64,000 bases of DNA from an uncultured Bacilli bacterium (GCA_947624565.1 CANQKX010000002.1:2059-66058), one strand, 5' to 3'. Counted from the first letter of the stretch, positions 43,183 to 64,000 are shown. The notes: generated from the sequence alone by a model not told the origin. Translations and numbers: made by a program.

Positions 43183-43197
43183 TAGGAGATGGTTTAT

Positions 43198-44655: not shown

Positions 44656-44707
44656 AATGTTTTTTTTAGTCCATTATAATAATGACATGATAGTTTATAT
44701 GTTAAAA

Positions 44708-44741
44708 AAGAAAATACGCGGGATGCTATTTTCTTTTTTTA
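44708..44741 (+). terminator. rho-independent terminator
   Basis: aagaaaata...tattttctt stem followed by TTTTTTT. Confidence 0.55.
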
Positions 44742-44794
44742 TTGCAAAAATCATATAAATATTCTATAATTAATTTATGAGAGTAGGTAACTAG

Positions 44795-46177
44795 ATGAAG
44801 TATAATTTTTTAGCAAAAATCTTTATGTATTTAACAATATTTGTATTTTCAATTATTACAATTATTTTTTTATCACGAAATTATTTTATATTTGCTTTAC
44901 TAGCATATGTAATAGTTTTATTTATATCATTAAAAATGAATATAAAAAGATTCCCTTTATTTTTATTTATTATAAGTTTATTAATACGATTAGCAGTCAT
45001 TTTTATAGTAAATTTGCCTCAGCAAGCTGATATGTGGATTATGCTTGATGCTGCTAAAAAATTTGCTGTTAATGATTATTCTTTTAGCAATTTACCATAC
45101 TTTTCTACTTGGGGATATCAAACAGGATTTGTTATATATCAAGGTTTAATTTTAAAATTATTTAAAAATGAATTTGTTTTAAAAATACTTAATGCAGTAT
45201 TTACATCATTAACAACAGTTATAGTATATTTAATATCAAAAAAATTTACATCAGAGAAAAGTGCTAAAATTGTATCTTTATTATATATGATACTACCTAT
45301 GCCACTTTTATTAAATCCAATATTAAACAATCATATATTATCAGCATTACTTATGTATATTGGTATCATGTTTATAATAAAAGAAGAAAAAACTATAAAA
45401 GATTATATTTTTGCTTCTATATTAATTGCTATAGGTAATATTTTAAGACCAGAAGGTATAATAGTTGTTTTTTCATTGATTGTATTTGAAATAATAAAAA
45501 TAAATAAGAAAACAATTTTTGATATATCAAGAAAAATCTTTGTCTTTTTGGCTATATATTTATCTATTAATTCATTTTCTTCATTTTTAATTCAAAAAAC
45601 TGGTATAAATGAAGTGGGATTAAAAAATAATAATCCTTTATGGAAATTTGTACTTGGATTTAACCATGATACATGTGGATATTACAGTTATGATGATGAA
45701 AAATATTCTTATAGTGAAAAAGAAGAAATGGAAGTTATAAAAGATAGAGTATTAACATCTCCATCTAAATTAACTAAATTATTTACTTGTAAAATTGATT
45801 ATTTTTGGTTATTATCAAAACCATCTACAGGAGAATTTAATGCAAAAGAATTTAATTTTATGAATATAAAAATTAGTGCTGAAAAACTTAATGATATTGT
45901 AATAAATTTCAATACATATATTTATATAATAACACTATTCATGTGTTTTATTGGAGTTATATTTAATATAAATAAAATAATACAAAATAATTCAATATTT
46001 TTTGTTATAATGATGATAGTTACATTCTTTGTATATCTACTTATTGAACTTAGAGTTAGATACACATACTTTATTGTAATATCAATATTTATATTATCAT
46101 CATACGGATATGATTATGTTTTAAATTATATATCAAAATTAAAAAAACATAAAAATATATCTAAGAGTAAAATTTAA
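44795..46177 (+). CDS. GT-C fold polytopic membrane glycosyltransferase (ArnT/PMT-like)
   Basis: More than 10 TM segments and a periplasmic-loop acidic motif (QQADMWIMLDAAKKF) early in the protein, typical of GT39/GT83-like enzymes. Confidence 0.45.
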   Translation: MKYNFLAKIFMYLTIFVFSIITIIFLSRNYFIFALLAYVIVLFISLKMNIKRFPLFLFIISLLIRLAVIFIVNLPQQADMWIMLDAAKKFAVNDYSFSNLPYFSTWGYQTGFVIYQGLILKLFKNEFVLKILNAVFTSLTTVIVYLISKKFTSEKSAKIVSLLYMILPMPLLLNPILNNHILSALLMYIGIMFIIKEEKTIKDYIFASILIAIGNILRPEGIIVVFSLIVFEIIKINKKTIFDISRKIFVFLAIYLSINSFSSFLIQKTGINEVGLKNNNPLWKFVLGFNHDTCGYYSYDDEKYSYSEKEEMEVIKDRVLTSPSKLTKLFTCKIDYFWLLSKPSTGEFNAKEFNFMNIKISAEKLNDIVINFNTYIYIITLFMCFIGVIFNINKIIQNNSIFFVIMMIVTFFVYLLIELRVRYTYFIVISIFILSSYGYDYVLNYISKLKKHKNISKSKI

Positions 46178-46189
46178 AGGAGTGATAAA

Positions 46190-47464
46190 ATGATATCTAA
46201 ATTAAATAATATTATAGATAAAAATATAGTAAAAATATTTATGATATTTCTATTTATTCAACCATTTTTAGATGTTATCGCAGCTGTAATATTATATCAT
46301 TTTAAAATAAATTTTACTATAAGTTCTTTAATAAGATTTATATTTCTTATCTTTTGCATTTATTATTTGTTTTTTATAAAAAAACAAAAGGTGCCACTTC
46401 TAATAATACTTACTTATTCATTAATATTTATAGTGCAAAATATATATTATAAAGAAATTTCAAATATATATTTTGAAATAAAAATGTTACTTAATAACAT
46501 ATATTTACCTATTATACTATTATTTATGATTGGTATATTTAAAGATAATAAAATTAATATGAAAAATATCTATATAATATTTATAATATATATTCTATTT
46601 ATTTTCATTCCAGATATATTAAATATAGGATTTAATAGTTATGCATATTCAAAAGTAGGTAGTGCAGGATTATTTTTTTCTGCTAATGCAATAGGAAGTA
46701 TAATAAGTATGTTATTTCCAATTTTACTTGCTTATTTAGTAAGTAAAAAAAGAAAAATATTATTGCCTATATTTTTATTAATTTATTTCTTTATATTATT
46801 CAAAATGGGTACAAAAGCACCATTATTATGTTCTAGTATAGTTATAATATATTATTTTATATTATTATTTATTAATTTATTTAAAAAGAAAAAATATACA
46901 TATATATTTTTAAGTTTTATTATGATATTTGCATTTATTTTATTAATTGTAAAATTATTACCATATACTGCATTTTATAAGAATTTAGTAATTCATTTAA
47001 ATTTCTTAAATGTAAAAAAAGTATCTGATTTATTTAATTTTAAATATATAGATCACTTCTTATTTGGAAGTAGGTTATCATTTTTTAAAGATACATTTAA
47101 AATATATTTAAATTCTTCAATTTTTCAGAAACTTTTTGGAATAGGATATACATTAAATAATAATTATTTAAAGATTTCTGAAATGGATTATTTAGATACA
47201 TTTATTCATCAAGGTATAATAGGATTTATAGTGATTTATTTTACATATTTTAAATGTATTTTTCAAATATTCAAAAATTATATAAAGAACTTTACTAAGA
47301 ATTTTAAAAATATAAATATAACATCTATTATAATATCATTAGTAACATCAATATTATGTGCATTACTTACAGGCCATGTACTTTCAACACCATCTGTTTC
47401 AATTTTCGTTTCATTAATAATTATAATAATATATAATAAAAATATACAAGGAGAAATAAAATGA
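46190..47464 (+). CDS. O-antigen ligase/polymerase (Wzy-like) family membrane protein
   Basis: 424 aa with 10-12 TM segments and a larger loop toward the C-terminal third; located inside the polysaccharide locus. Confidence 0.45.
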
Positions 47465-48012
47465 GAAGATACAAAAAAGATCAATTAAAAAAAATTAGAA
47501 TATATTTAATACTAGATTCTATGAAAAGAACTAAATATATTATTAAACATGATATTTTTAAAGAAGTAGGAAAAAATTTTTTCTTTCAACCAAGAAAAAT
47601 ACCTGCTGATCCAAAACTTATTAAGTTTCATAATAATGTTGTTGTAACAAGTGGAGTATTATTTATAACACACGATGTTACTGATTTTATGCTTAATAAT
47701 AGAGAAAATATAGATCATTTTTATAAATATAATTCAGGATGCATAGAAGTTATGAATAATGTTTTTATAGGTAGTAATTCAATAATTCTTCCAAATATAA
47801 AAATAGGTAATAATGTAATAATAGGTGCTGGATCTGTAGTTACAAAAGATGTTCCTGATAATTCAGTAATCGCAGGTAATCCTGCTAAAATAATATGTTC
47901 TTTTGATGATTATATAAATAAAAGAAAACAAAAAGATGAAAATTTAGTTGAATATACAAATGAAGAAACAGAAAACAAATTATGGGAACAATTTTATAAA
48001 AATAAAGATTAG
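47461..48012 (+). CDS. hexapeptide-repeat (LbH) sugar O-acetyltransferase
   Basis: Hexapeptide repeats ([45 protein letters not shown]). Confidence 0.7.
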
Positions 48013-48021
48013 GTGATTAAA

Positions 48022-49122
48022 TTGAAAAAGAAAATAATATTTATGTCATATAGTTTATGTTTTGGTGGAATAGAAAAAGCACTTATTGAATTATTAAACA
48101 AATTAGATTATTCAAAATATGATGTAACTTTATTGCTTGAGAAAAAAGAAGGAGATTTTTTAGCAAAATTAAATAAAAATGTAAAAATATATAATTATGA
48201 TATATGTAATAGTAAAAATGTATTATATAGAAAATTTAGAAATGGTTTAAAAAGGTTAAAATATTTAATGTTTAATTATATGAAATATGACTTTGCATGT
48301 TGTTATGCTACTTATTCAAAACCATGTAGTTTACTATCTTTAAAATCATCAAAAAATACTGCATTATATGTTCATGGTGATTATGTTAATGAGTTTAATG
48401 ATAATAAAAAAACTATAGATTTTTTTCAAAATCAAGATATAGAAAAATTTAAAAAAGTTATATTTGTATCCAATGAATCAAGAGATAATTTGATAAAATT
48501 AATGCCACAAATAACTAATAAAAGTTATGTGATAAATAATATTATTAATAATAGTGATATAATTAAATTATCTAATGAAAAAATAAATGAAACAAAAAGA
48601 AAAGATACAATATTATTGTTATATGTAGGAAGATTAGATGAAAAAGTTAAAAGAATATCTAAAATGATTTTAACTACAGAATTTTTAAATAAAAATAATA
48701 TACATACTGATTTTTGGATTATAGGTGATGGAGAAGATTATCAATTATATGAAAAAATTATAAAAGAAAAAAAATTGCAGAATAATGTTAAATTATTAGG
48801 TAGTAAAATAAATCCATATCCATATATAAAATTATGTGATTATTTAGTTATTACATCTGATCATGAAGGATTTCCAGTAACTTGTTTAGAAGCAATGTGT
48901 TTAAATAAAAATATTATTTCTACTATTAGTGTTAGCGATGATGAAATTGATATAAAAGATTATGCCTATATAATTTCTAAAGATGTAGATAAAATGAAAA
49001 ATGAAGTATTAAAAATAGTAAACTCAAAAAATAAATTAAAAGAAGTAGACTTTAATACAATAAACAAAAAAAGAATAAAAAAACTTGAAGCAATGTTTGA
49101 AGGTGAATTTGATGAAGTTTAG
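48022..49122 (+). CDS. GT4-family glycosyltransferase
   Basis: C-terminal GT4 E-x7-E-like region (HEGFPVTCLEAM). TTG start after an aggtga RBS (the ORF is listed from a GTG at 48013). Confidence 0.6.
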   Translation: MKKKIIFMSYSLCFGGIEKALIELLNKLDYSKYDVTLLLEKKEGDFLAKLNKNVKIYNYDICNSKNVLYRKFRNGLKRLKYLMFNYMKYDFACCYATYSKPCSLLSLKSSKNTALYVHGDYVNEFNDNKKTIDFFQNQDIEKFKKVIFVSNESRDNLIKLMPQITNKSYVINNIINNSDIIKLSNEKINETKRKDTILLLYVGRLDEKVKRISKMILTTEFLNKNNIHTDFWIIGDGEDYQLYEKIIKEKKLQNNVKLLGSKINPYPYIKLCDYLVITSDHEGFPVTCLEAMCLNKNIISTISVSDDEIDIKDYAYIISKDVDKMKNEVLKIVNSKNKLKEVDFNTINKKRIKKLEAMFEGEFDEV

Positions 49123-50023
49123 TTTAATAATACCTGTTTATAATGTTGAAAAATATTTAGAAAAATGTTTAAAAAGTATTTTAGATAATACATATAAAAA
49201 TTATGAAGTAATTATTGTTAATGATGGATCTACTGATAATAGTGAAAAAATAATAAAAGAAAATTTAAATAAATTTGAAGATATAACTTATATAAAACAA
49301 AAAAATAAAGGACTTAGTAGTGCAAGAAATGAAGGAGTAAAAAAATCTAAAGGAGATTATATTTGCTTTATAGATTCAGATGATTATATTCAAAAAGATA
49401 TGCTTGAAGTATTAAATAATAATTTAAAAGATAATCCTGATATTTTAAGATTTCAACTAAGAGAAGTATATAATGATAAGAGTGTAGATATAAATGAAAT
49501 CTCGTTTAATACAACAAATTCAAATAATGCCTTTAGTAAAATAGTTAAATATAAATATATAGAAATGTCCCAATTATATATATATAAAGCATCTTTCTAT
49601 AAGGAAAATAATTTTTCTTTTAAAGAGGGTATTTATCATGAAGATTTTGCATTAATACCTATTATAATAGCTAGTTGTAAAAGTATAAAATCAATTGATT
49701 ATATTGGATACAACTATGTTATTAGAGATGGAAGTATAATGAGAAGTAATGATAAAAATAAAATTATAAAGAAAATGGATGATAGTTTACTAGCATTTAA
49801 TCAAGCTATACAGATATTAAATAAAATGGAAAATAAAGATGAATTTAAAAATTTTTATGCAAATAGTATATTAGATAAATATTACTCTTTGGATAAAAAT
49901 TCAAAGAAAGAGTATAAAGAAAGAATAAAAAAATTAAATGTATTTAGTTATATGTCAACTAATAATTTTAAAAGAAAAATAAAAAAAATAATATATAAAA
50001 TAAAGTTTGGAGTAGGAATATGA
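49112..50023 (+). CDS. GT2-family glycosyltransferase
   Basis: FSLIIPVYNVEKYLEKCLKSIL...VNDGSTD...DSDD. Confidence 0.75.
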   Translation: MKFSLIIPVYNVEKYLEKCLKSILDNTYKNYEVIIVNDGSTDNSEKIIKENLNKFEDITYIKQKNKGLSSARNEGVKKSKGDYICFIDSDDYIQKDMLEVLNNNLKDNPDILRFQLREVYNDKSVDINEISFNTTNSNNAFSKIVKYKYIEMSQLYIYKASFYKENNFSFKEGIYHEDFALIPIIIASCKSIKSIDYIGYNYVIRDGSIMRSNDKNKIIKKMDDSLLAFNQAIQILNKMENKDEFKNFYANSILDKYYSLDKNSKKEYKERIKKLNVFSYMSTNNFKRKIKKIIYKIKFGVGI

Positions 50024-50967
50024 AAGTAAGTATAATTGTACCTGTATATAATACAAAAAAATATTTGAAAAAGTGTATAGATTCTATAGTAAATCAAACA
50101 TATAAAAATATTGAAATTATAATAATTAATGATTGTAGCAGTGAAAATATAGATGAAATTGTAAATCAATATGAAGATAAAAGAATTATATATATAAAAA
50201 ATACTGCAAATAAAGGTATTGGTTATAATAGAAATTTAGGAATAAAAAAATCTACAGGAAGTTATATTTGTTTTATAGATTCAGATGATTATATAAAAGA
50301 AGATTTTGTTGAAAAAATGTTAAATAAATGTACTAATGAAGATTTAGATATGTGTATTTGTGATTATAATTACGTATATGAAAAGAGTAATAAAATACAA
50401 AGTGTAAATCTTGCTAGTTTTGATACTACAAATTTAGATGAAAATCCAAAACTTTTAATTGATATTCCACTTGGGCCTTGTAATAAAATGTATAAAAAAT
50501 CTATGATTTTAAATCATAAGATAAAGTTTAGTGAGATTTTAAAATATGAAGATGTATCTTTTGTAGCATCTACACTTTATTATAGTGATAAAATTGGAAA
50601 AATAGATGAAGCATTAAATTATTTTCTAGTTCATGAAAATAGTCAAACTACTACTCGTGATGAAAAAGTATTTGATATATTTAAACAACTTGATATGGTT
50701 AAAGATATTTATAAGAATGATAAAAATGATTACTTAGATGAACTTATAATATCTATATTATTTAATTATAATATCCAGCAAAGATATCAAGAAAATAGTG
50801 AGATAGCAAATAAGTTTATAGATCATTCTTTTGAATATTTAAAGAAAAATAATATATCATATAAACAAAGTATGTATTTAATAAATAGACCTATATTAAA
50901 ATCATTTATAGAAAAAAGTAAATTTAGAACAAAGTTATATTGCTTTTTATACAGAAAATTAATATAA
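50020..50967 (+). CDS. GT2-family glycosyltransferase
   Basis: VSIIVPVYNTKKYLKKCIDSIVNQ...DSDD. Confidence 0.75.
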   Translation: MKVSIIVPVYNTKKYLKKCIDSIVNQTYKNIEIIIINDCSSENIDEIVNQYEDKRIIYIKNTANKGIGYNRNLGIKKSTGSYICFIDSDDYIKEDFVEKMLNKCTNEDLDMCICDYNYVYEKSNKIQSVNLASFDTTNLDENPKLLIDIPLGPCNKMYKKSMILNHKIKFSEILKYEDVSFVASTLYYSDKIGKIDEALNYFLVHENSQTTTRDEKVFDIFKQLDMVKDIYKNDKNDYLDELIISILFNYNIQQRYQENSEIANKFIDHSFEYLKKNNISYKQSMYLINRPILKSFIEKSKFRTKLYCFLYRKLI

Positions 50968-51054
50968 TTTTAGTTATTAATTTAATATATTTTATATTGT
51001 TTGTATCTATATGATATGATATAATGATAGTAATTAAAGTAGAGGAGAAGTAAA

Positions 51055-52002
51055 ATGAAAGAATTAATTACAGTAATTGTTCCTTGCTATAACGAGGAAG
51101 AATCTTTACCACTATTTTATGAAGAAATTATTAAAGTAGCAGATAAAATGTCAAAACAAGTTGATTTTGAATTTATTTTGGTAAATGATGGTAGCAAAGA
51201 TAAAACTTTAGAAATATCTAAAAATTTATCAAAAAAAGATAAAAGAGTAAAATATGTTTCTTTTTCTAGAAATTTTGGTAAGGAAGCTGGTATGCTTGCA
51301 GGGTTAGAATATGCAAAAGGAGATTATATAGCAATAATGGATGCTGATTTACAAGATCCACCATCTATGCTTCCAGAAATGTATAATATAATTAAAAAAG
51401 AAGGTTATGATTGTGTTGGTACTAGAAGAGTAACTAGAAAAGGAGAACCACCAATTAGAAGTTTTTTTGCAAGATGTTTTTATAAAATAATAAACAAAAT
51501 GTCAAAAGTAGAAATGGTAGATGGTGCGAGAGATTATAGACTTATGACTCGCCAAATGGTTAATTCTATTATATCTATGAAAGAGTATAATAGATATTCA
51601 AAGGGTTTATTTAGTTTTGTTGGTTATGATACTAAATGGTTAGAATATGAAAATATAGAAAGAGTTGCAGGTGAAACAAAATGGTCATTTTGGAAATTAT
51701 TTAAATATGCGATTGAAGGTATTGTTGCATTTTCAACAGTTCCATTATCAATATCAGCAATATTAGGTATTATTATGTGTTTGGTTGCATTTATTGCAAT
51801 AATTGTAATAATAATAAAAACATTGATGTTTGGAGATCCTGTTGGTGGTTGGCCAAGTATGGTTTGTATCATTTTATTTGTCAGTGGTATTCAACTATTT
51901 TGTATGGGAATAATAGGTCAGTATTTAGCAAAAACATATTTAGAAACTAAAAAAAGACCAGTGTATATTGTAAAAGAAACAAATCAAGATAAAATAGAAT
52001 AA
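51055..52002 (+). CDS. GtrB-like polyprenyl-phosphate glycosyltransferase (GT2 with C-terminal TM helices)
   Basis: ITVIVPCYNEEE...VNDGSKD...DADLQDPP, plus two C-terminal TM helices, as in GtrB/CsbB/ArnC. Confidence 0.7.
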   Translation: MKELITVIVPCYNEEESLPLFYEEIIKVADKMSKQVDFEFILVNDGSKDKTLEISKNLSKKDKRVKYVSFSRNFGKEAGMLAGLEYAKGDYIAIMDADLQDPPSMLPEMYNIIKKEGYDCVGTRRVTRKGEPPIRSFFARCFYKIINKMSKVEMVDGARDYRLMTRQMVNSIISMKEYNRYSKGLFSFVGYDTKWLEYENIERVAGETKWSFWKLFKYAIEGIVAFSTVPLSISAILGIIMCLVAFIAIIVIIIKTLMFGDPVGGWPSMVCIILFVSGIQLFCMGIIGQYLAKTYLETKKRPVYIVKETNQDKIE

Positions 52003-52026
52003 TTCTCATATGAGAATTTTTTTTAT
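52002..52026 (+). terminator. rho-independent terminator
   Basis: attctcatatgagaat palindrome followed by TTTTTTTT. Confidence 0.55.
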
Positions 52027-52127
52027 TAATATAATAGTTTGTTACATTTTATAAAATGTGATATAATGTACATGTTGGTGTTACATCAATTTAAGTATTA
52101 TATTTTTTTAGGGGGAAAATACAAATA

Positions 52128-52829
52128 ATGAAAAATGGGAAAATTATATTTGTATTATGTATAATTAATTTAGTTTTAACATTGTTTATTATTTTTAATG
52201 TAAGGACTAATGAATTATCATATAATACTATTAAAATTAATAAAAAAGATAATTTAACAGAAAAACTTAAAAATGAAAATTTTGTATTCTTAGGTGATTC
52301 AATTACTGATTGGTATCCTTTTGATGAATTATATGAGGATATTATGCCAATAATAAATAGTGGAAGAGCTGGGTATCAAACAAAAGATATTTTAGAAAAA
52401 TTACCTAGTTTAGTTTATGACTATAATCCAACTAAAGTATTTATATTAATAGGTACAAATGATTTAAAAGACGAAAATTTGACAACAGATAATATAGTCA
52501 ATAATATTAAAGAAATTATAGAAAAAATAAAAGAAAATAGACCTAATGCTAAGATATATCTTCAATCTATATATCCTATTAATAATACAGATAATGAAAA
52601 AATAGATAAAAAAGATGTTGGAATAAGAAAAAACGAGAATATAAAAGAAATTAATAAGAAATTAAAATCTTATTGTGAAGAAAATCAAATAGTGTATATA
52701 GATATGTATACTAATTTAATAGATAAAGATGGTAATTTAGATATAAAATATACTGAAGATGGTCTACATTTATCATCACTTGGTTACATAAAAGTTACTA
52801 GAATATTGTTACCGTACCTAGAAAATTAA
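52128..52829 (+). CDS. SGNH/GDSL hydrolase family protein
   Basis: GDSIT block I (FLGDSITDW), block III GTND, and a DGLH block V. Confidence 0.65.
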   Translation: MKNGKIIFVLCIINLVLTLFIIFNVRTNELSYNTIKINKKDNLTEKLKNENFVFLGDSITDWYPFDELYEDIMPIINSGRAGYQTKDILEKLPSLVYDYNPTKVFILIGTNDLKDENLTTDNIVNNIKEIIEKIKENRPNAKIYLQSIYPINNTDNEKIDKKDVGIRKNENIKEINKKLKSYCEENQIVYIDMYTNLIDKDGNLDIKYTEDGLHLSSLGYIKVTRILLPYLEN

Positions 52830-52845
52830 AAGGAGAATAAGTTGT

Positions 52846-53910: not shown

Positions 53911-53984
53911 ACTATACTTTTATCAATAAATATTATATAATATTTATTGATATAATAAATGTAGTAACAGAAGAGAGGTATATT

Positions 53985-54722: not shown

Positions 54723-54726
54723 AAAA

Positions 54727-55500: not shown

Positions 55501-55551
55501 AGTTATTATTTAATAACTTTTTTTAAAATATATAATTGAAAGGGATAAGTT

Positions 55552-56970
55552 ATGATAGATTATAGTTTAACTCCAGGTAGAAAATTAAAAGAAAATGCCA
55601 AACTTATAAATATTGAAAATCCAGTGATATCAATAATTACTCCATTTTATAATGGAGGAGAAACTTTAATGGAAACTGCAAATTGTGTTTTTAGTCAAAC
55701 ATATCCATATTTTGAATGGATTATAGTTGATGATGGATCTACTGATAAAAAATCAATAAAGCAATTAGATAAAGTTAAACAATTAGATAAAAGAGTAAAG
55801 ATATTTCATAAAAATAATGAGGGTCCATCAGTAGCGAGAGATTATGGAATAAGTAAAGCATGTAAGTTTAGTAAATATGTATTCTTTTTAGATTGTGATG
55901 ATATGATTGAAAATAATATGATTGAGTGCTTATATTGGACTTTACAAACACACAGTAATGCAAGTTTTGCTTATACTGCCGCAACTGTTTTTGGAGATTC
56001 GAATCATATATGGGAAAGATATTTAACTACAAAAATTGAAAAAAAGGAAAATGTAATAAATATAAGTAGTATGGTAAATAAATTAGATTTAATAGAAGTA
56101 GGATGTTTTGATATTAAAGAAAAAGGAATGTATGAAGATTGGAATTTATGGCTTAAATTACTTTCTGTAGGAAAGATACCAATAAGAATAAATGCTCCTT
56201 TATTTTGGTATAGATCAAGTAATGCTGGTGAATTTTCAAGAGCCAATATGAATCATGATAAAGCGATGAATGTTATAAATAAGACTGCATCTAATTTAAA
56301 AAATAATGTTCAAGTAATTCAATTTCCTAGATGTAATAAAGATTTAAATTCTTCATTAAATAATGATACTATATTACCTTATTATAAAAGGGGTATAAAG
56401 AAAACAATATTATTTATAATATCATCTATGAGTAATTCAAATGAAGATTTATTTAATATAAATTTAATAAAAGATTTGAATAAAAATAAATATAATATAA
56501 TTGTATTAACTACTACTCCAAAAGATAATGATTTAAGACAAGAATTTTATGAAAATTCAGATGAATGTTATGATATGTCTACATTTTTAGATAGAAAAGA
56601 TTATATAATTTTTACTGATTACATAATTAAATCAAGAAATGTTGATTATATATATATTGGTGATGATTGTTGTGCTAAAGCTATACTTTCGCATTTAGAA
56701 TCTAAAAACATTAATATTTGTATAATAAATAATGATAAAATTAATAATGGAGAAATTATTGAAGATAGTTTAAAGACTTTAAATGTAAAATCAAGTGACA
56801 CATACGAAACATATTTAAATGATTCATATAATCAATTTAAATCATATTGTAAACATTATAATGAAAAGTATAGAGTAAGATTTAAAGATATGTTAAAACA
56901 GGTTATTTATAAAATTAAAAAATTTATAAAGTTAATCTATGAAAAATATATATGTAAAAATAATAATTAG
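55552..56970 (+). CDS. GT2-family glycosyltransferase with an additional C-terminal domain
   Basis: ISIITPFYNGGETL...VDDGSTD...DCDD at the N-terminus, followed by about 250 aa of unassigned C-terminal sequence. Confidence 0.6.
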   Translation: MIDYSLTPGRKLKENAKLINIENPVISIITPFYNGGETLMETANCVFSQTYPYFEWIIVDDGSTDKKSIKQLDKVKQLDKRVKIFHKNNEGPSVARDYGISKACKFSKYVFFLDCDDMIENNMIECLYWTLQTHSNASFAYTAATVFGDSNHIWERYLTTKIEKKENVINISSMVNKLDLIEVGCFDIKEKGMYEDWNLWLKLLSVGKIPIRINAPLFWYRSSNAGEFSRANMNHDKAMNVINKTASNLKNNVQVIQFPRCNKDLNSSLNNDTILPYYKRGIKKTILFIISSMSNSNEDLFNINLIKDLNKNKYNIIVLTTTPKDNDLRQEFYENSDECYDMSTFLDRKDYIIFTDYIIKSRNVDYIYIGDDCCAKAILSHLESKNINICIINNDKINNGEIIEDSLKTLNVKSSDTYETYLNDSYNQFKSYCKHYNEKYRVRFKDMLKQVIYKIKKFIKLIYEKYICKNNN

Positions 56971-57020
56971 ATATTTAAATATCTAATTTTTTAGTTTATA
57001 ATTATATTAGAGGTGATGTT

Positions 57021-58028
57021 ATGAGTATACTTGTTACTGGTGGTGCAGGATATATTGGCTCACATACATGTGTAGAACTTTTAAATAATGGTTATGAACT
57101 AGTAGTTATTGATAATTTTTCAAATAGTAAACCAGAAGCAATAGATTCAATTAAAAAAATAACTGGGAAAGATTTTAAATTTTACAATATTGATTATTTA
57201 GATAAAAATTTATTAGAAAAAGTATTCCAAGAGAATAATATTGATTCGGTAATTAATTTTGCTGGATATAAAGCAGTAGGAGAGTCTGTTGAAAAACCAA
57301 TTGAATATTATATAAATAATGTATCAGGTGCATTAATTTTACTTGATGTAATGAAAAAATATAATGTTAAGAAATTTGTGTTTTCATCATCTGCAACTGT
57401 ATATGGAGATCCAGAAATTATTCCAATAACAGAAGATTGTAAAATAGGAGGTACAACAAATCCATATGGTACTTCCAAATTATTTATAGAGCAAATACTT
57501 CAAGATATATATAAATCTGATAATACATGGGATATTGCAATACTTAGATATTTTAATCCAGTAGGAGCTCATTCTAGTGGACTTATTGGAGAAGATCCTA
57601 AAGGTATACCAAATAATTTGATGCCATATATTGCAAAAGTTGCTAATAAAGAATTAAAAGAATTATCAGTATTTGGTAATGATTATAATACTAAAGATGG
57701 AACAGGTGTGAGAGATTATATACATGTTGTAGATCTTGCCAAAGGTCATTTGTTAGCACTTGATAAATTAAATAAAGAGAAAAAAGGAATATTTATATAT
57801 AATTTAGGAACAGGAATAGGTTATAGTGTACTTGATATGGTTAATACTTATTCAAAAGTTAATAATGTAGATATTCCGTACAAAATTGCCCCAAGAAGAG
57901 CAGGTGATATTGCATCTTGTTATTCTGATCCAAGTAAAGCAAAAAAAGAGTTAGGATTTGAATGTACAAAGACACTTGAAGATATGTGTAAAGATTCATA
58001 TAATTTTATAAAAAATCATGAAAGGTAA
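57021..58028 (+). CDS. galE: UDP-glucose 4-epimerase
   Basis: [13 protein letters not shown] Rossmann motif and YxxxK (YGTSK); 335 aa. Confidence 0.85.
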
Positions 58029-58032
58029 AAAT

Positions 58033-58506
58033 ATGAAAAAAAGAGTATTATTTATATCATCAACAGGTGGACACCTAAAAGAATTATTACAATTAAAGAG
58101 TTTATTTAATAAATATGATTCATATATAATAACTGAAAAAACAAAATCTACGATAAGCATGAAAGATGAATATAAAGATAAAATGGGGTTTCTAATATTT
58201 GGTACAAAAGATTACCCACTTACATATCCTTTTAAATTAATTGCTAATTGTTTTATAAGTTTATATTATTTTATAAAATTTAGACCAAAATATATAGTTA
58301 CAACAGGAACTCATACTGCAGGTCCAATGTGTTGCATAGGAAAAATATTTAGATGTAAAGTTATATATATTGAAACTATGGCAAATTGTAATACAAAAAC
58401 AATAACAGGTAGATTATTATATCATATTGCAGATTTATTTATTGTTCAGTGGCAAAGTATGCTTAAACTTTATCCAAAAGCAGTATATGGTGGATTTATA
58501 TTTTAG
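58033..58506 (+). CDS. Alg14-like (PssD/Cps14F-type) glycosyltransferase membrane-association subunit
   Basis: RVLFISSTGGHLKELLQL N-terminus is typical of Alg14-like proteins. Confidence 0.55.
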   Translation: MKKRVLFISSTGGHLKELLQLKSLFNKYDSYIITEKTKSTISMKDEYKDKMGFLIFGTKDYPLTYPFKLIANCFISLYYFIKFRPKYIVTTGTHTAGPMCCIGKIFRCKVIYIETMANCNTKTITGRLLYHIADLFIVQWQSMLKLYPKAVYGGFIF

Positions 58507-58515
58507 GAGGTTTAT

Positions 58516-58995
58516 ATGATATTTGTAACATTAGGAACACAAGATAAAGGATTTCCTAGATTATTAGAGGCAATTGAAAAACAAATACAAAATGGGAATA
58601 TTAAAGAGAAGGTAATTGTTCAAGCAGGACTAACAGAGTATGAATCAAAAAATATGGAAATTTATAAACTAATGCCAATGCAGCAATTTGATAAATATGT
58701 AAAAGAATGTGATTTACTTATTACTCATGCTGGAGTAGGTTCTATTATGAGTGGGTTAAAAAATAATAAAAAAGTAATCGCAGCAGCCAGATTAAAAGAA
58801 TATGGTGAACATAATAATAATCATCAAGTTCAAATAGCAACTGAATTTTCTAATCTTGGATATATACTATATTTAGAAGATTTTGACAAATTAGGTGAAT
58901 TACTTAAAAAATCTAAAACATTTAAACCTAGAAAATATGAAAATAATAATAAAAATTTTGTAAAAATAATAGAAAATTTTATAGATAACAATTAA
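58516..58995 (+). CDS. Alg13-like (Cps14G/EpsF-type, GT28 C-terminal domain) glycosyltransferase catalytic subunit
   Basis: MIFVTLGTQDKGFPRLL...ITHAGVGSIM. Confidence 0.55.
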   Translation: MIFVTLGTQDKGFPRLLEAIEKQIQNGNIKEKVIVQAGLTEYESKNMEIYKLMPMQQFDKYVKECDLLITHAGVGSIMSGLKNNKKVIAAARLKEYGEHNNNHQVQIATEFSNLGYILYLEDFDKLGELLKKSKTFKPRKYENNNKNFVKIIENFIDNN

Positions 58996-59009
58996 AAGAG
59001 GTGTTTACC

Positions 59010-60203
59010 ATGAAAAAAATAACAATTTTATGTTTACATCTAGGATATGGAGGAATAGAAGTAGCAGTTACTAATTTAGCTAATATGCTTATAGATAAAT
59101 ATGATGTTAATATTGTATCTATTTATAATCTATATGATAAAACAATGTATAAATTAGATGAAAATGTTAATGTTAATTATTTAATAAATAGTGATATAGC
59201 ATTAAGAGTAGATTCTTATAAAAAGAATTTAATCCATTTTCATTTTATAACTTTATTTAAAGAGTTATATAATGATTATTTAAAAAAAGGTAAGATATTT
59301 AAGTTATTTTCAGATACTTTTAATAGTTTAAAAATAATAAAACTAAAGAAAAAATTAATGATAGATTATTTAAAAACATGTGATAGTGATTTAATAATAT
59401 CTACAAGAATTGAAATAACTGAAATATTAAATAAAAATTATAAAGGTAAAGCAAAACTAATATCATGGGAACATTCTCATCATCATAATGATCAAAAATA
59501 TATAAATGGAGTTATTAAATCTTTAGATAATATTGATTATTTTATGCCTGTTTCTAAAAAATTAACTGATTTTTATAAAAATAAAATTAAATCAAATACA
59601 CAAGTTATATATGCACCATTATGTGTTGATTATATACCTGAAAAAGAAGCAAAAAAAACTAAAAAGAATATTGTTGCAATTGGTAGATTATCAAAAGAAA
59701 AAGGATTTTTAGATTTAATAGATGTATTTAATATAATTATAAGTAAAGATAATGAATGTAGACTTCATATTATCGGTGATGGATTTGAGAAAAATAATAT
59801 AGAAAATAAAATAAATGAATTAAATTTAAACAATTATGTAACTTTGTATGGATATAAGGATAAAAGTTTTATAAGAGAAAAATTAAATGATATGAGTTTA
59901 TATTTATTAACATCATATGAAGAATCGTTTGGATTAGTAATATTAGAAGCAAGTTCTTTTGGTATACCAGTAATAGCATTTGATAGCGCAGAAGGTGCAA
60001 CTGAAATAATAAATAATGATATAGATGGTTATTTAATTAGTAACAGAGATAAAAATTTAATGGCAGAAAAAAGTATAGAATTATTAAATAATAAGAAAAA
60101 ACTTGCTAAATTTGGTAATGAAGCAAGATTAAAGGCAATAAAATATTCATATGATTCAGTAAAAGAACAGTGGTTAAAAATAATAGATAATATATTAAAA
60201 TAA
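59010..60203 (+). CDS. GT4-family glycosyltransferase
   Basis: EESFGLVILEASSFGIPVIAFD GT4 motif. Confidence 0.7.
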   Translation: MKKITILCLHLGYGGIEVAVTNLANMLIDKYDVNIVSIYNLYDKTMYKLDENVNVNYLINSDIALRVDSYKKNLIHFHFITLFKELYNDYLKKGKIFKLFSDTFNSLKIIKLKKKLMIDYLKTCDSDLIISTRIEITEILNKNYKGKAKLISWEHSHHHNDQKYINGVIKSLDNIDYFMPVSKKLTDFYKNKIKSNTQVIYAPLCVDYIPEKEAKKTKKNIVAIGRLSKEKGFLDLIDVFNIIISKDNECRLHIIGDGFEKNNIENKINELNLNNYVTLYGYKDKSFIREKLNDMSLYLLTSYEESFGLVILEASSFGIPVIAFDSAEGATEIINNDIDGYLISNRDKNLMAEKSIELLNNKKKLAKFGNEARLKAIKYSYDSVKEQWLKIIDNILK

Positions 60204-60213
60204 GGAGTAAAAT

Positions 60214-60612
60214 ATGAAAAAATTATTTATGCAAATAATAAAATTTGGTTTAGTAGGAGTAATAGCTACAGTTATAGATTATGTATTGTTATATGTGTTA
60301 ACAGAGTTTTTTAACATATATTATTTAATATCATCAATAATATCTTTTTCAGTTTCTGTAATATTTAATTATATTGCAAGTGTAAGATGGGTATTTGATG
60401 TAGATAAAAATAAAAATAGTAAAGTAAAGGAATTAGTTGTATTTATAATACTAAGTGTAATAGGTTTAGGAATAAATCAATTATTCATGTGGTTATTAAG
60501 TGATAAATTAAATATTTATTATATGATTTCAAAATTATTTGCAACTGTAGTTGTGATGTGTTGGAATTTTATTACAAGAAAATTATTTTTAGAAAATAAT
60601 AAAAAAGATTAA
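60214..60612 (+). CDS. GtrA-family membrane protein (polyprenyl-phosphate-sugar flippase-like)
   Basis: 132 aa with four TM segments and a GtrA-like N-terminus (IKFGLVGVIATVIDYVLLYVL). Confidence 0.65.
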   Translation: MKKLFMQIIKFGLVGVIATVIDYVLLYVLTEFFNIYYLISSIISFSVSVIFNYIASVRWVFDVDKNKNSKVKELVVFIILSVIGLGINQLFMWLLSDKLNIYYMISKLFATVVVMCWNFITRKLFLENNKKD

Positions 60613-60628
60613 TCATTAATCTTTTTTT
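60601..60628. terminator. bidirectional terminator between convergent genes
   Basis: aaaa-aagattaat-c-attaatctt-ttttt. Confidence 0.5.
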
Positions 60629-61641
60629 AATATACTAATATAAAATTCTTTCCACATTTTATAAATATTATCTTTACTATAAAAATTAGATATATATTTA
60701 GCAACTTCTATTTGTTCATTATATAGTTTATTATTATTTTTTAATTCCTTTATAATTTTAGCAAACTCATCATTATTACTTCCTTTTAAATACTTTTTAA
60801 ATAATATATCTTCGTATAATTCTAAATCTCTAAGTAATATTGGAGTTTGTGTACTAACTGCTTCAAGTATAGTCATAGGAAATAATTCATTATAAGATGG
60901 AACAAATAATAAATCAGATGCATTAAATAAATCATTCATTTCATCTCTAGGTATAATACCTAAAAATTTAACATTTTTAGGAGGATTTTCCATTAATTTT
61001 TTTAATTCATTATGTCCATCAGTAATTGCACCAAAACTAAATCCACCGGCCCATATGAAGGTTATATCAGGTAATTTTTTTGCAACTTCTGCAAAATCCA
61101 TAACACCCTTTCTATTTTGTACTTGACCTGCGCCAAGTACTACAAAATCATTTTCATTTATATTATACTTTTTTCTTATTTGTTTGATTTCTTTTTTGCT
61201 TTTTTTATAAAATTTTTCTTTTGACACAAAATTAGGTATATAAGTTATTTTATTTTTATCAAGACCAGCTTTAACTAAATCTTTTTTAAATATAGGATTT
61301 ACAACAACAAGATGATCAGCACTTTTATAAAAACTAATAACATATTTTTTAAATATTTTAAATATAGGTTTAGGAAGTTTTATTGATCCATCTAATGTAT
61401 CAGGTAAAAAATGTACATATGCAACTGTAGGATTTTTTGATAATTTTAATTTTAAGTAATTTCTAGGTTCTACAGTATGTGCATGTATAATATCATATTT
61501 AGTACCTTTATTTAAATAAATTTCAAAGTCATCTTTTCCATCTTCTTTTAATAATTTCATAAGTTCAAGATAAGCACTTCCAACACCTTGTCCGTCAACA
61601 GAATCAGCCATTGAAAGCATATTAATTTTAATTTTATTCAT
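60616..61641 (-). CDS. GT4-family glycosyltransferase
   Basis: N-terminal G-rich (SVDGQGVGSAYLEL), C-terminal GT4 core (LFPMTILEA), and an aaggag RBS on the minus strand. Confidence 0.65.
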   Translation of the reverse strand: MNKIKINMLSMADSVDGQGVGSAYLELMKLLKEDGKDDFEIYLNKGTKYDIIHAHTVEPRNYLKLKLSKNPTVAYVHFLPDTLDGSIKLPKPIFKIFKKYVISFYKSADHLVVVNPIFKKDLVKAGLDKNKITYIPNFVSKEKFYKKSKKEIKQIRKKYNINENDFVVLGAGQVQNRKGVMDFAEVAKKLPDITFIWAGGFSFGAITDGHNELKKLMENPPKNVKFLGIIPRDEMNDLFNASDLLFVPSYNELFPMTILEAVSTQTPILLRDLELYEDILFKKYLKGSNNDEFAKIIKELKNNNKLYNEQIEVAKYISNFYSKDNIYKMWKEFYISILKKD

Positions 61642-61740
61642 AAAAAACTCCTTGTTTATAAAATTATATCATATTTATTTATATATATTATATTTTTTTT
61701 ATAAATTGAATATAATATAATTGAATAATTGCCAAAAAAT

Positions 61741-61769
61741 TTGACTAAAATGGTTTTTTTTGATAGAAT
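61741..61769 (+). promoter_or_regulatory. consensus sigma-A promoter (TTGACT-17-TAGAAT)
   Basis: TTGACT, then the 17-nt spacer aaaatggttttttttga, then TAGAAT. The predicted transcription start is at about 61777. Confidence 0.55.
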
Positions 61770-61777
61770 TATTCTCG

Positions 61778-62100
61778 TATGAAGGGTGCAGTATCCTAGT
61801 TGATACATCTATTACGAAGACGAGCCTAAAAATTCGTTAAAGAGCATACCTGTGAAACTTCTTGTGCTTGCTTAAATCGCCCAGATTTGGGTGGGTGCTG
61901 GGAGGTAAGTTATTTGGGAAACTTATAATGGCATATAAGAAGAACCCAAATAGCGTGGAGACTTAATATTGTGCTAAACCCTTGATTTAGTACGAATTAA
62001 GATTAAACCTACTTTGAGGCGAAAGCTTTGGGTAGTGTAGCTTGCCTTGAGTGAATATCTTGGGATTATAGAACTAATGTAGATATTTTTGGCCAAAAAT
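61778..62100 (+). ncRNA. candidate structured non-coding RNA or long structured 5' leader (identity unknown)
   Basis: Sharp local rise in GC (roughly 40% or more, against about 25% background) over about 320 nt with no credible ORF. Multiple local stems (cccag..ctggg; atttggg...cccaaat) and gaggcgaaagc. It lies immediately downstream of a consensus promoter and ends at the palindrome tttttggccaaaaa. Confidence 0.4.
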
Positions 62101-62378
62101 GTTTATATGATATTGCTATATGAAATTGTGTTTGCAAAAAAGACTAGTAATAGATAAAATATCAGGGAGGAAATCTCCTAGGCTGTATGTCAATATAAGA
62201 TTGCAGTGCGTACTAAGTGGCAATCAAGTCATATATTTGGAAACAATATATACATTTATTAAAGGGGAACCGCCTTTTGGTAACGAAAGGTTTAAATGTG
62301 GGAAATCCTACTTGACCTATGACGCAAAGTTTATTATGTTGGTACCAATCATATTTTTTTTATTTTAAGGATGGATTT

Positions 62379-62918
62379 ATGAAAAAGAGTAAAACTAAAA
62401 AAAATGATAGATTAAGATGGTTATTTACTGTATGTATACTATCTTTTATACTTTCAATTATATTCTCATGTGCATCAGAAACTATAATTCCAAATATTAA
62501 TATATTATTTGGGATATTAGTTATAATATTATTTATTTTAATAAGTATAATATTTGATATGATAGGAGTTGCAATAACTGCAGCAGAAGAAACTCCATTT
62601 CATTCTATGGCTTCTAAAAAAGTAAAAGGAAGTAAACATTCAGTAATATTATTAAAAAATTCAGATAAATTAGCATCTATATGTAATGATGTAATTGGTG
62701 ATGTATGTGGTGTAGTTAGTGGTAGTGCAGGGATGCTTGTTGCATCATCAATTTCTACAAAATTTAATTTAAATGCATCACTTGTTGTTCTTTTAGTAAC
62801 AGCAATTATCGCATCACTTACAATAACAGGTAAAGCATTTGGTAAAACAAAAGCAATTAAAAATTCAGAAGCAATTACATTAAAAGTTGGAAAATTTTTA
62901 AATTTTTTTAAAAAATAA
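62379..62918 (+). CDS. small polytopic membrane protein, function unknown
   Basis: Four TM segments. aaggatgg RBS before the ATG at 62379 (the ORF is listed from 62319). Confidence 0.45.
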   Translation: MKKSKTKKNDRLRWLFTVCILSFILSIIFSCASETIIPNINILFGILVIILFILISIIFDMIGVAITAAEETPFHSMASKKVKGSKHSVILLKNSDKLASICNDVIGDVCGVVSGSAGMLVASSISTKFNLNASLVVLLVTAIIASLTITGKAFGKTKAIKNSEAITLKVGKFLNFFKK

Positions 62919-63082
62919 GTATAAAATAATTTTTATAGATAACAATAATAATGTCATATGAAAAATATGACGATAAGTTTGAAGAACCTAATTATTATTA
63001 GGTTCTTTTTTATTTTAATATTTACTTAAATATGTAAAAATGTTAAAATTATATTGTATATAAATGATAAAGTGAGGTAGTT

Positions 63083-64000
63083 ATGGAAAAAAAAGAGTAT
63101 GTATCATTAGAAGAATATAATAAATTGTTAGATAAATACAATGATGTAAGTGAAAAATTATGGCAACTTGAACATAGAAAAGTAGTTAGAGGAGCAAATA
63201 AACTTATAAGAATTGCTAAAAAAATGAAATTAGATAAAGTAGCAAAATTTATAAAAAGAGGATTTAATGGATTTTTTAGAATAGTAGGTATACCTAAAAT
63301 ATTTTTTAATAATCTTTTTGTAAGAAATATAAATAAGTTAACATTGCCAGAATATAAATATTTTAAATTTAAAAAAAATAGAATAGAAAATTATTATTTA
63401 GATACTTCTAAAATTAAACATTCATGTGAGAAAGATTTAGTAACTATTGTACTTCCAATATATAATGGAGATAAATTAATGAGTCAAACGATAGATAGTA
63501 TACTAAATCAAACGTATAAAAAATTTGAATTAATAATTGTAAATGATGGCTCAACAGATAAAACATTAAAAATAGCAGAGGAATATGCAAAAAAAGACTC
63601 AAGAATAAAAGTAATAAATCAAGAAAATCAGAAATTACCACAATCAATTGCAAATGGATTTAAAGTAGCAAATGGAGAGTATTCAATGTGGGTAGGAGCA
63701 GATGATATACTTCATAATAATTGTATAGAGTCTATGCTAAATGATTTAAAAAGCGACGAAAAAGTTGATTTTGTATATCCAAATGTTAGATTAATTGATG
63801 AAAATAATAAAATTATTACTAGCAATAAGTGGTATGCAAGCAATAAAGAACATCCAGAATATGTAATGCTTCCTAAAAATATGCTTGAATTTTGCGAAGT
63901 AAAGAATAATTATATTGCGCCAATATGTATGTATAAATCAATAGTTGTAAAAACATTATCTGATTTTTCAAAAAATAGATTTACTGTTGAAGATTATGAT
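63083..64000 (+). CDS. GT2-family glycosyltransferase with an N-terminal extension, 3'-partial (runs off the window)
   Basis: Manual translation from the ATG at 63083 (gaggtag RBS) has no stop up to the window end. VTIVLPIYNGDKLMSQTIDSILNQ...VNDGSTD...GADD are GT2 motifs. Confidence 0.65.
   Translation, partial: MEKKEYVSLEEYNKLLDKYNDVSEKLWQLEHRKVVRGANKLIRIAKKMKLDKVAKFIKRGFNGFFRIVGIPKIFFNNLFVRNINKLTLPEYKYFKFKKNRIENYYLDTSKIKHSCEKDLVTIVLPIYNGDKLMSQTIDSILNQTYKKFELIIVNDGSTDKTLKIAEEYAKKDSRIKVINQENQKLPQSIANGFKVANGEYSMWVGADDILHNNCIESMLNDLKSDEKVDFVYPNVRLIDENNKIITSNKWYASNKEHPEYVMLPKNMLEFCEVKNNYIAPICMYKSIVVKTLSDFSKNRFTVEDYD

Follow-up and report, generated by a model that had tools for sequence, protein, structure and literature searches.

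In ABC-dependent O-antigen pathways, an enzyme of the WaaL fold (Wzy_C clan) normally accompanies an ATP-binding cassette (ABC) exporter. Related arrangements are described in Gram-positive bacteria: S-layer glycan clusters pair Wzm/Wzt exporters with WsaB/WsfB (PMC2943079); the wall polysaccharides of lactococci, streptococci and enterococci combine an ABC-exported backbone with side chains dependent on a GT-C glycosyltransferase and a polymerase and with Gtr-type decoration (PMC9574508); and pneumococcus sends one precursor chain either to peptidoglycan by LCP (LytR-CpsA-Psr) enzymes or to a glycolipid by TacL, a WaaL-like lipoteichoic acid (LTA) ligase that shares its precursor with them (PMC5727136). 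WpaA and WpaB of Bacillus anthracis belong to the Pfam family PF13425; a proposal that lacks biochemical proof makes them the polymerases or ligases of an undecaprenyl-linked secondary wall polysaccharide that is attached later by LCP enzymes (PMC6030368). The subject of this analysis is a locus of 19 closely packed genes (44795-61641, all on the plus strand except the last) within a stretch of 64,000 nucleotides, hereafter the window, from an uncultured Bacilli bacterium (GCA_947624565.1, CANQKX010000002.1:2059-66058). Profile matches bore out the first-pass annotation of the window in that the locus joins a Wzy_C-clan membrane protein (of family PF13425), an ABC-2 exporter and a Gtr-type three-component system; every gene family that it had named was found by open reading frame (ORF), Pfam and NCBIfam analysis, contiguous and, but for one gene, co-directional. 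The locus is very probably a mosaic of three modules that specifies a wall or envelope glycopolymer, and the best explanation overall, held with about even confidence, is that this mosaic makes a wall glycopolymer (secondary wall or teichoic-like) by an ABC-dependent route.

The rhamnose-rich loci (cwps/rgp/gac/epa) resemble the window in holding an ABC-exported backbone system, a GT-C, a polymerase-type membrane protein and GT-A/GtrA/GT-C decoration in one locus, in having a strain-variable decorating part and in the LCP enzymes invoked for attachment; their initiation depends on TagO (PMC9574508), and the window itself holds no initiator. The window differs from them in lacking rmlABCD, rhamnosyltransferase genes and a Wzx-type flippase; in its polymerase/ligase, which is a PF13425 protein with a modelled WaaL fold and not a WpsI-type GT-C; in its exporter-linked enzyme, a dual-domain GT2/GT4 that has suffered a deletion; and in its lineage, which is one of uncultured gut Bacilli with 23% guanine plus cytosine (GC). 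The B. anthracis system shares the PF13425 family, a proposed LCP attachment, and a pyruvyl transferase of the kind that occurs in the exporter block of the window's relatives; in contrast, its model uses a MATE-like flippase and not an ABC exporter (PMC6030368), and the window has neither a pyruvyl transferase nor SLH proteins. ABC-dependent O-antigen and S-layer pathways (Escherichia coli O8/O9a; Geobacillus stearothermophilus and Paenibacillus alvei slg) are alike in their adaptor glycosyltransferases (GTs), multidomain polymerising GT (internally deleted in the window) and Wzm/Wzt exporter, and in having a Wzy_C-clan enzyme, which in those pathways (WaaL/WsaB) delivers the completed chain to the acceptor (PMC2943079). 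However, lipid A-core is excluded as the acceptor in the window, where no S-layer protein was identified either; the ABC ATPase lacks the C-terminal carbohydrate-binding extension, and no chain terminator was seen. The pneumococcal system is matched by the LCP gene, the WaaL-fold gene and the glycolipid-synthase-like GT4 gene that neighbour one another in the window, but TacL is a Wzy_C protein (PF04932) whereas the window protein belongs to PF13425 with no NCBIfam match, and the window is without choline or ribitol-phosphate genes. Pneumococcal teichoic acid also uses a Wzx-type flippase. All component families are already known, and loci for wall polysaccharides and S-layer glycans of Gram-positive bacteria offer documented combinations of ABC export, a Wzy_C-clan enzyme, GT-C enzymes and Gtr-type decoration; given the precedents for a WaaL-fold/Wzy_C enzyme with an ABC exporter (PMC2943079, PMC9574508), the 'non-canonical assembly route' first suggested for the window is unnecessary. 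The locus is most suitably classed with the composite cell-wall glycopolymer loci of Gram-positive bacteria; it comes from an uncharacterised lineage and mainly extends known biology.

Families were assigned by Pfam and NCBIfam profile scans. Relatives, aligned by blastn, were compared as loci (designated L and a number), including 80 species-level loci around PF13425 homologues with 10 kb of flank each, so that absence from a locus does not equal absence from a genome. Three clean indels (Table 1) interrupt an otherwise collinear alignment, at 76-86% nucleotide identity, of the window with three relatives (L011, L013 and L017). L011 resolves all three junctions, L013 the first and L017 the second (with a 67-nt gap); the L017 alignment reaches only 44429, so the GT-C junction is not covered there. 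The shared core that remains consists of the PF13425 protein, the LbH acetyltransferase, GT4, two GT2s, GalE, PssD, PssE and a further GT4. Its GT4-GT2-GT2 segment (48013-50967) has orthologues 61-70% identical and in the same order in all three relatives, and its last GT4 (59001-60203) has orthologues 62-66% identical; a 106-nt repeat at 80% identity joins the GT2 genes 49085-50023 and 50020-50967. The second module is the 6-kb exporter block, and the third comprises GT-C and GtrA. GT-C is missing from L011 and L013 (gap of about 11 nt), lies directly upstream of the PF13425 homologue in L004, L014, L018-L021 and L023, and lies about 6 kb upstream of it in L002. GtrA is absent at its place in L011, and the stretches fetched for L013 and L017 contain no homologue of GtrA or of the minus-strand GT4. 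A nearer strain (L100), 97.9% identical over 44671-51494, has an unchanged gene order and keeps the left junction of the exporter block. The locus can be described as a conserved envelope 'super-locus' between LtaS/LCP and OLE/oapA whose interior is a mosaic of these three modules.

The exporter block has a counterpart elsewhere in the lineage. On scaffold_442 (L002 and L095), the minus-strand GT4, OLE RNA, oapA, a deacetylase gene and BipA come after the core, and about 5 kb beyond oapA there is a separate exporter cluster with the order GtrA-GtrB-DUF6056-x-AT3-SGNH-ABC ATPase-ABC-2 permease-GT2-pyruvyl transferase-GT2/GT4. The L095 exporter and that of the window have 90% (ATPase) and 82% (permease) protein identity, and the DNA is 70-81% identical. 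Because its divergence matches that of the rest of the locus and GC at third codon positions (GC3) is uniform, the exporter block appears to be native to the lineage and to have been moved rather than imported. A foreign or accessory origin judged by composition was rejected, since all genes, those for housekeeping among them, have a GC3 of 0.07-0.13; where GC dips, at 45-50 kb, the cause lies in codon positions 1 and 2 of membrane proteins. No flanking repeats or mobile-element traces were found at the indel borders, only chance AT-rich matches and the repeat between the GT2 paralogues. Genome-wide absence of the exporter block from L011, L013 and L017, an initial conclusion, was withdrawn: their fetched stretches stop about 2 kb past oapA, before the position equivalent to that in L002/L095, and the block could sit further on. 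The first-pass annotation had named strain comparison as the check on an accessory origin, and the content of the locus does vary among relatives; that suggestion holds in so far as the site is conserved and its content reshuffled, and fails on the uniform GC3 and on the similarity of the block's DNA to a relative's module.

An AlphaFold model of the PF13425 protein, built from 22 homologues (pLDDT 88, pTM 0.88), has a single strong neighbour in Foldseek, the O-antigen ligase WaaL (7tpg_B, E=3e-3, probability 1.0, TM 0.46-0.48), whereas no NCBIfam model matches the protein and a profile search of PDB sequences with the PF13425 alignment found nothing meaningful. The model thus predicts a WaaL fold, and PF13425 belongs to the clan that includes Wzy_C. 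Residues K209, H269, R295, E331, D333 and H396 of the protein are invariant. In the 80 loci, full-length homologues 33-60% identical stand beside quite different sets of GTs, and this conservation near unrelated sets makes an enzyme that recognises a conserved feature a better reading than a Wzy specific for one repeat unit. In 10 of the 80 species, a TagH homologue of at least 40% identity is encoded no more than 10 kb from the PF13425 gene. In L098, the PF13425 gene, GTs, exporter, GT2/GT4, AT3, Alg14/13 and LCP form one contiguous cluster; in L087, a Glycos_transf_4 initiator is found two genes upstream of the PF13425 gene, with GTs, an ABC exporter and LCP, and L088 has the genes of L087 in a different order. 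The pattern of gene neighbourhoods fits an enzyme acting after an ABC exporter on a conserved feature of a lipid-linked glycan, and less so a repeat-unit-specific Wzy coupled to a Wzx.

The best NCBIfam matches of the exporter pair are all glycan exporters (TagH, galactan Wzt and galactan Wzm). Two TagH models match the ATPase at 221.8 bits (cut-off 320) and 236.1 bits (cut-off 538), and the sole match of the permease is galactan Wzm at 63.9 bits (cut-off 380). The earlier designation 'TagH/TagG-like' was right to point to an ABC-2 glycan exporter, which is what the two proteins are best called, and too specific for an ATPase below the curated TagH cut-offs (222 vs 320 bits). The exporter pair is next to GT genes in L095, L098, L099 and L083.

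The polymerising enzymes of ABC-dependent pathways have this layout, a dual-domain GT2/GT4 protein beside the exporter. Full-length proteins of this type (about 770 aa) adjoin the exporter in L095, L098 and L099; of the 120 best homologues of the window's protein (55552-56970), almost all are 735-785 aa long and carry a GT2 domain at the N-terminus and a GT4 domain at the C-terminus. The window's protein aligns with residues 1-394 of one homologue (P0124) at 65% identity and then weakly, residues 418-470 against 673-727; about 280 residues have been lost in frame, removing the nucleotide-sugar-binding C-terminal half of the GT4 domain. The deletion is not an assembly artefact, because the identical 472-aa protein was assembled independently in four runs. 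A short homologue (P0228) was considered as a natural 'short form' and rejected: it follows the full-length sequence and is merely truncated, without this deletion.

Other expected pathway genes are missing, as the first-pass annotation had reported for Wzx, the initiating transferase and Wzz. Domain scans of the 64-kb window (plus-strand ORFs of at least 100 aa and two long minus-strand genes) found no Wzx (Polysacc_synt), Bac_transf, Glycos_transf_4 or Wzz/tyrosine-kinase protein; the initiator motifs DE[LI]PQ / GPRP and DGxDG are absent from the six-frame translations of the window, and the Bac_transf motif is absent from 1.59 Mb comprising the window and the relatives' loci. The 80 loci contain 64 unexplained ORFs with multiple transmembrane (TM) segments that resemble no window protein; these include many GT-C classes (DUF6056, YfhO, GtrII, PMT_2), five Glycos_transf_4 proteins and only one Polysacc_synt (Wzx) protein. 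The Glycos_transf_4 genes (129-133 bits) of L087, L088 and L057 are beside the PF13425 homologue, and initiator motif matches were also found in L012, L015 and L016. The initiating gene for TagO-primed polymers is often unlinked to the cluster, and an initiating enzyme outside this cluster is compatible with such a polymer. The sole protein of the MOP superfamily in the window is a MatE-family protein with a weak MurJ match (11220-12614). Situated 33 kb from the locus, it may be regarded as a weak candidate for the absent flippase because the B. anthracis wall-polysaccharide model invokes a MATE-like flippase (PMC6030368).

Neither the TagF/TarL polymerase (PF04464) nor genes for CDP-glycerol or CDP-ribitol synthesis were found in the window, and with TagH below cut-off, membership in the classical wall teichoic acids was rejected; a Glyphos_transf gene is present in L045, the locus of a distant relative. 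Membership in the rhamnan pathways was likewise rejected, as no match of the RmlA-D type above cut-off (rmlABCD, NCBIfam) was found in the window. The only genes for nucleotide-sugar metabolism in the window are those of GalE and a GalU-like NTP_transferase (5087-5950). The latter and a further GT2 (8038-9087) are surrounded by housekeeping genes and precede the locus by about 36-40 kb; they may feed or extend the same glycan pathways.

That the core and the exporter belong to one pathway, in which the PF13425 protein acts after the exporter, is a proposal put forward a little short of even confidence, and several observations weigh against it or against the ABC-dependent route in general. The five or six single-function GTs and the acetyltransferase look like the machinery for a Wzy-type repeat unit, not an ABC adaptor; the core is uninterrupted by an exporter in L011, L013 and L017, and the exporter of L002 is about 10 kb away, so that the two modules may be independent; a Wzx/MurJ-like flippase and an initiator could be elsewhere in the genome; neither fold nor family can separate a ligase from a polymerase, and no clan member with a solved structure was found besides WaaL; and the exporter module may be impaired in this strain by the deletion in the polymerase. 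The two distinct polymers first suggested for the locus are a live, if somewhat unlikely, rival explanation. The core would then make a Wzx/Wzy heteropolysaccharide with the PF13425 protein as a true Wzy, its Wzx and initiator encoded elsewhere, and the exporter block and Gtr system would make and decorate a second, ABC-exported polymer, the juxtaposition being functionally meaningless. The physical separation of the exporter block on scaffold_442, where it forms a cluster of its own, and its absence between the second GT2 and GalE in L011, L013 and L017 favour this explanation; the core also resembles repeat-unit loci in how many single-function GTs it has and in how these vary. PssD (165.6 bits against NF041549, cut-off 110) and the adjacent PssE (146.5 bits against NF041548, cut-off 120) point the same way, as members of the Cps14F/Cps14G family known from Wzy-dependent capsules. 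However, a heteropolysaccharide of this type would require a Wzx, of which the window has none and the 80 species only one within 10 kb of a PF13425 gene, and the window has no Wzz/tyrosine kinase; the PF13425 gene, core-type GTs and exporter are interleaved in L098, L087 and L088; and PF13425 homologues, unlike Wzy, are conserved by unrelated GT sets.

The Gtr components were identified by family. The GtrB-like enzyme aligns over its full length with PgfS (339 bits, cut-off 500) and with an ArnC-type model (162 bits), and two hydrophobic C-terminal segments (TM helices) are visible in its sequence; counting either this enzyme or the GT2 cut off by the end of the window is necessary to reach the 'at least eight' GT2/GT4 enzymes of the first-pass annotation. 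With GtrA, a putative flippase for the polyprenyl-phosphate sugar, and GT-C, the window holds all three members of a Gtr-type system. The three are jointly missing from the locus in L011, L013 and L017 and jointly present in the window and on the L002 scaffold, and this joint gain and loss is the best evidence here that they act as one unit. Where the window has a PMT_2-type GT-C, the exporter blocks of relatives have polytopic proteins of DUF6056, a membrane family labelled GT_STM0557_N in the collection used (L095 1236-4294; L083 5585-6910 and 8740-10074; L099 1-2461), and L095 and L099 also have, in the GT-C place, a membrane protein of about 580 aa that matches no Pfam family. The exchange of DUF6056 for PMT_2 suggests that the extracytoplasmic transferases are interchangeable.

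A second rival explanation, improbable in our estimation, is a dual-chain polysaccharide of the Lactococcus type, in which the GtrB-like enzyme would initiate on undecaprenyl monophosphate (as WpsA/WpsB), cytoplasmic GTs would extend the chain, the PF13425 protein would polymerise it after flipping (WpsI-like) and GT-C would graft it onto the ABC-exported backbone (WpsJ-like) to give one composite polysaccharide. This would account for the absent phosphoglycosyl transferase, and GT-C is directly upstream of the PF13425 gene in the window and at least seven relatives. All published roles have candidates here (model in PMC9574508) except that of the Wzx-type flippase, and it is the lack of this 12-TM protein that weighs against the explanation, together with the lack of rhamnose genes, the retention of the core without GT-C, GtrB and GtrA in the fetched stretch of L011, L013 and L017, and the deleted backbone polymerase of this strain. 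To our knowledge, GtrA-family proteins serve monosaccharide carriers only.

Protein O-glycosylation is a third and quite improbable explanation, by which the PF13425 protein would be an O-oligosaccharyltransferase (WsaB/WsfB/PglL-like), or GtrB/GT-C a Pgf-like system, or both, acting on surface proteins such as the neighbouring dockerin/cadherin-like proteins. Gram-positive S-layer glycan clusters pair Wzm/Wzt with a transferase that has a Wzy_C domain (PMC2943079), Ser/Thr-rich regions in surface proteins of streptococci are substrates of GtrB/GT-C pairs (PMC12041528), and secreted proteins are conserved neighbours of the locus. PgfS is the best NCBIfam match of the GtrB-like enzyme, but at 339 of the 500 bits demanded; no S-layer/SLH protein and no clear Ser/Thr-rich disordered tract was identified among the neighbours, and the conserved LCP, LtaS and glycolipid-synthase-like GT4 point to wall or lipid acceptors instead.

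A wall glycopolymer made by an ABC-dependent route would be assembled as follows. A TagO/WecA-type enzyme encoded elsewhere would prime undecaprenyl phosphate. In the cytoplasm, PssD/PssE and the GT4 and GT2 enzymes, judged by their families, would extend the lipid-linked glycan with UDP-Gal/UDP-GalNAc derived from GalE, and the LbH enzyme would acetylate one of the sugars. The ABC-2 exporter, the only exporter in the locus and in the relatives' loci, would carry the lipid-linked glycan out, where the WaaL-fold PF13425 enzyme would transfer or polymerise it. The LCP enzyme is likely to be the ligase that couples the glycopolymer to peptidoglycan; by analogy with TacL, another possible acceptor is a glycolipid made by the neighbouring diacylglycerol (DAG)-glycosyltransferase-like GT4. 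In the scheme of PMC9574508, GtrB would make the polyprenyl-phosphate sugar, GtrA would flip it and GT-C would add it as a side branch. The polymer would be O-acetylated by AT3 and the anchored SGNH protein, which together match the OatA/OafA type by Pfam (an AT3 membrane domain with an extracytoplasmic SGNH domain). These are two adjacent genes in the window, not one fused protein, the SGNH protein having an N-terminal hydrophobic anchor, and in L095 an AT3-SGNH pair, in that order, adjoins the exporter.

A variant of this scheme, unlikely as it stands, is that the PF13425 enzymes of the lineage work routinely with ABC-2 exporters and TagO initiators, without Wzx, and ligate the exported glycan onto the glycolipid made by the GT4. 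If true, there would be an O-antigen-like 'lipoglycan' pathway in a monoderm, parallel to LCP wall attachment, at a locus shared with oapA and the membrane-associated OLE RNA. The minus-strand GT4 (60616-61641) matches the models for the IagA/BgsA LTA-anchor GT at 172.8 bits (cut-off 460) and for the processive DAG glucosyltransferase Dgs at 158 bits (cut-off 500), and is 87% identical in L002.

The closest relatives have the same flanks, with LtaS, LCP and the dockerin/cadherin-like proteins on one side and OLE and oapA on the other. The LtaS-like protein is 80-82% identical and in the same position in L011 and L017, the LCP gene is conserved beside the locus in relatives, and the secreted pair is syntenic in L002, L004, L011 and L017. 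One of the pair has a type I dockerin and a cadherin-like domain, and the other a cadherin-like domain and a C-terminal membrane anchor; the dockerin is found in a gut Bacilli bacterium of small genome with no visible cohesin partner. A role for these two proteins as targets of glycosylation is speculative.

On the other side, OLE RNA has the same place in L002 (14556-15155), L011 (17943-18541) and L013 (9140-9733), and the OLE/oapA pair is missing from this position in L017. The first-pass annotation had put an RNA element at 63.1 kb; the OLE RNA is about 1 kb away, at 61767-62364, and 63083 is simply the start of a GT2 gene, one that carries the run of glycan genes past OLE/oapA. The OapA-like protein, 74-86% identical in relatives and encoded directly after OLE, is by its position the presumed partner of the RNA. 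A promoter-like site (TTGACT-17-TAGAAT, with TG) precedes OLE at 61741-61769. A hairpin scan found no terminator-like site on the plus strand across the locus until after oapA, where a hairpin terminator (62981-63008) is the only one. Published work merely hints at a link between the OLE particle and cell-wall biology (PMC11332333), and the conserved placement of OLE/oapA amid envelope-glycan genes may be noteworthy.

Table 1. Features of the glycopolymer locus and its flanks (window coordinates), followed by the three indels relative to collinear loci.
Feature	Coordinates	Strand	Evidence or remark
LtaS-like lipoteichoic acid synthase	35989..38019	+	Pfam Sulfatase 137 bits; left flank
LCP (LytR-CpsA-Psr) enzyme	38765..40894	-	Pfam LytR_cpsA_psr 132.8 bits
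Two secreted dockerin/cadherin-like proteins	41188-43182, 43189-44655	+	Pfam Dockerin_1, Cadherin-like
GT-C fold PMT_2/ArnT-like glycosyltransferase	44795..46177	+	PMT_2 32 bits (cut-off 26.1)
PF13425 'O-antigen ligase-like' membrane protein	46190..47464	+	138 bits
Hexapeptide (LbH) acetyltransferase, cytoplasmic	47461..48012	+	Hexapep 40 bits; best NCBIfam match WbbJ-like, below cut-off
GT4	48013-49122	+	Pfam; conserved core
GT2	49085-50023	+	Pfam; conserved core
GT2, paralogue of 49085-50023 gene	50020-50967	+	Pfam; conserved core
GtrB-like polyprenyl-phosphate sugar synthase	51055..52002	+	Glycos_transf_2 126 bits; first gene of indel 2
Membrane-anchored SGNH esterase/transferase	52128-52829	+	Lipase_GDSL_2 83.5 bits
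AT3 acyltransferase	52846-53910	+	Acyl_transf_3 132.7 bits
ABC ATPase, 245 aa	53985-54722	+	ABC_tran 76.7 bits
ABC-2 permease	54697-55500 (start 54727 by gene callers)	+	ABC2_membrane 69.9 bits
Internally deleted GT2, 472 aa	55552-56970	+	GT2/GT4 homologues
GalE, UDP-glucose 4-epimerase	57021-58028	+	TIGR01179 435.5 bits (cut-off 262.3)
PssD/PssE split Alg14/Alg13 pair	58018-58506, 58516-58995	+	NF041549, NF041548
GT4, last gene of conserved core	59001-60203	+	Glycos_transf_1 126 bits
GtrA small membrane protein	60214-60612	+	GtrA_DPMS_TM (PF04138) 102.8 bits (cut-off 26.1); indel 3
GT4, diacylglycerol-glycosyltransferase-like	60616-61641	-	Best NCBIfam matches, below cut-offs
OLE RNA	61767-62364	+	Rfam RF01071 400.2 bits, full length 1-616
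OapA-like membrane protein	62379-62918	+	Position after OLE; weak CNNM match 28.1 bits
GT2 running off window end	63083-64000	+	Glycos_transf_2 110.9 bits, residues 121-262
Indel 1: GT-C	44740-46167		Gap of about 11 nt in L011
Indel 2 (6 kb): GtrB-SGNH-AT3-ABC ATPase-ABC-2 permease-GT2	50962-57013		Gap of 27 nt in L011
Indel 3: GtrA and minus-strand GT4	60199-61697		No gap in L011

The window is extremely AT-rich (GC 0.228), with GC3 of 0.06-0.13 in every gene examined, housekeeping genes included. A scan of the window for consensus promoters was uninformative, returning 209 sites where 218 are expected by chance at 23% GC; such scans are meaningless here because the codon bias is extreme. Away from the locus, the trmD ORF (27783-28895) encodes 370 aa, of which only residues 23-216 are spanned by the tRNA (m1G37) methyltransferase domain; no Pfam family matched the C-terminal 150 or so residues. 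Short Logan contigs (1-7 kb) from runs ERR10663726-29 carry exact copies of the window's proteins. Homologues of the PF13425 protein were found only in metagenome genomes of uncultured gut 'Bacilli' from rabbit, chicken, ruminants, mouse and human, the best species representative being only 60% identical. Candidatus Onthousia and Candidatus Aphodocola (Bacilli incertae sedis) are the names given to some of these genomes, and several carry the erroneous label Tenericutes or Mollicutes.

We know of no study of the surface glycopolymers of uncultured gut Bacilli, which probably set phage susceptibility and host recognition in these organisms. The points of some interest are the pairing of a PF13425 protein with an ABC exporter in the absence of Wzx, the clean modular indels, the deleted polymerase and the presence of OLE/oapA amid glycan genes. 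The locus gives a testable map in which core, exporter block and Gtr system are the modules and the indel boundaries are exact, and the recurrent pairing of PF13425 proteins with ABC exporters could help to settle the function of the WpaA/WpaB family.

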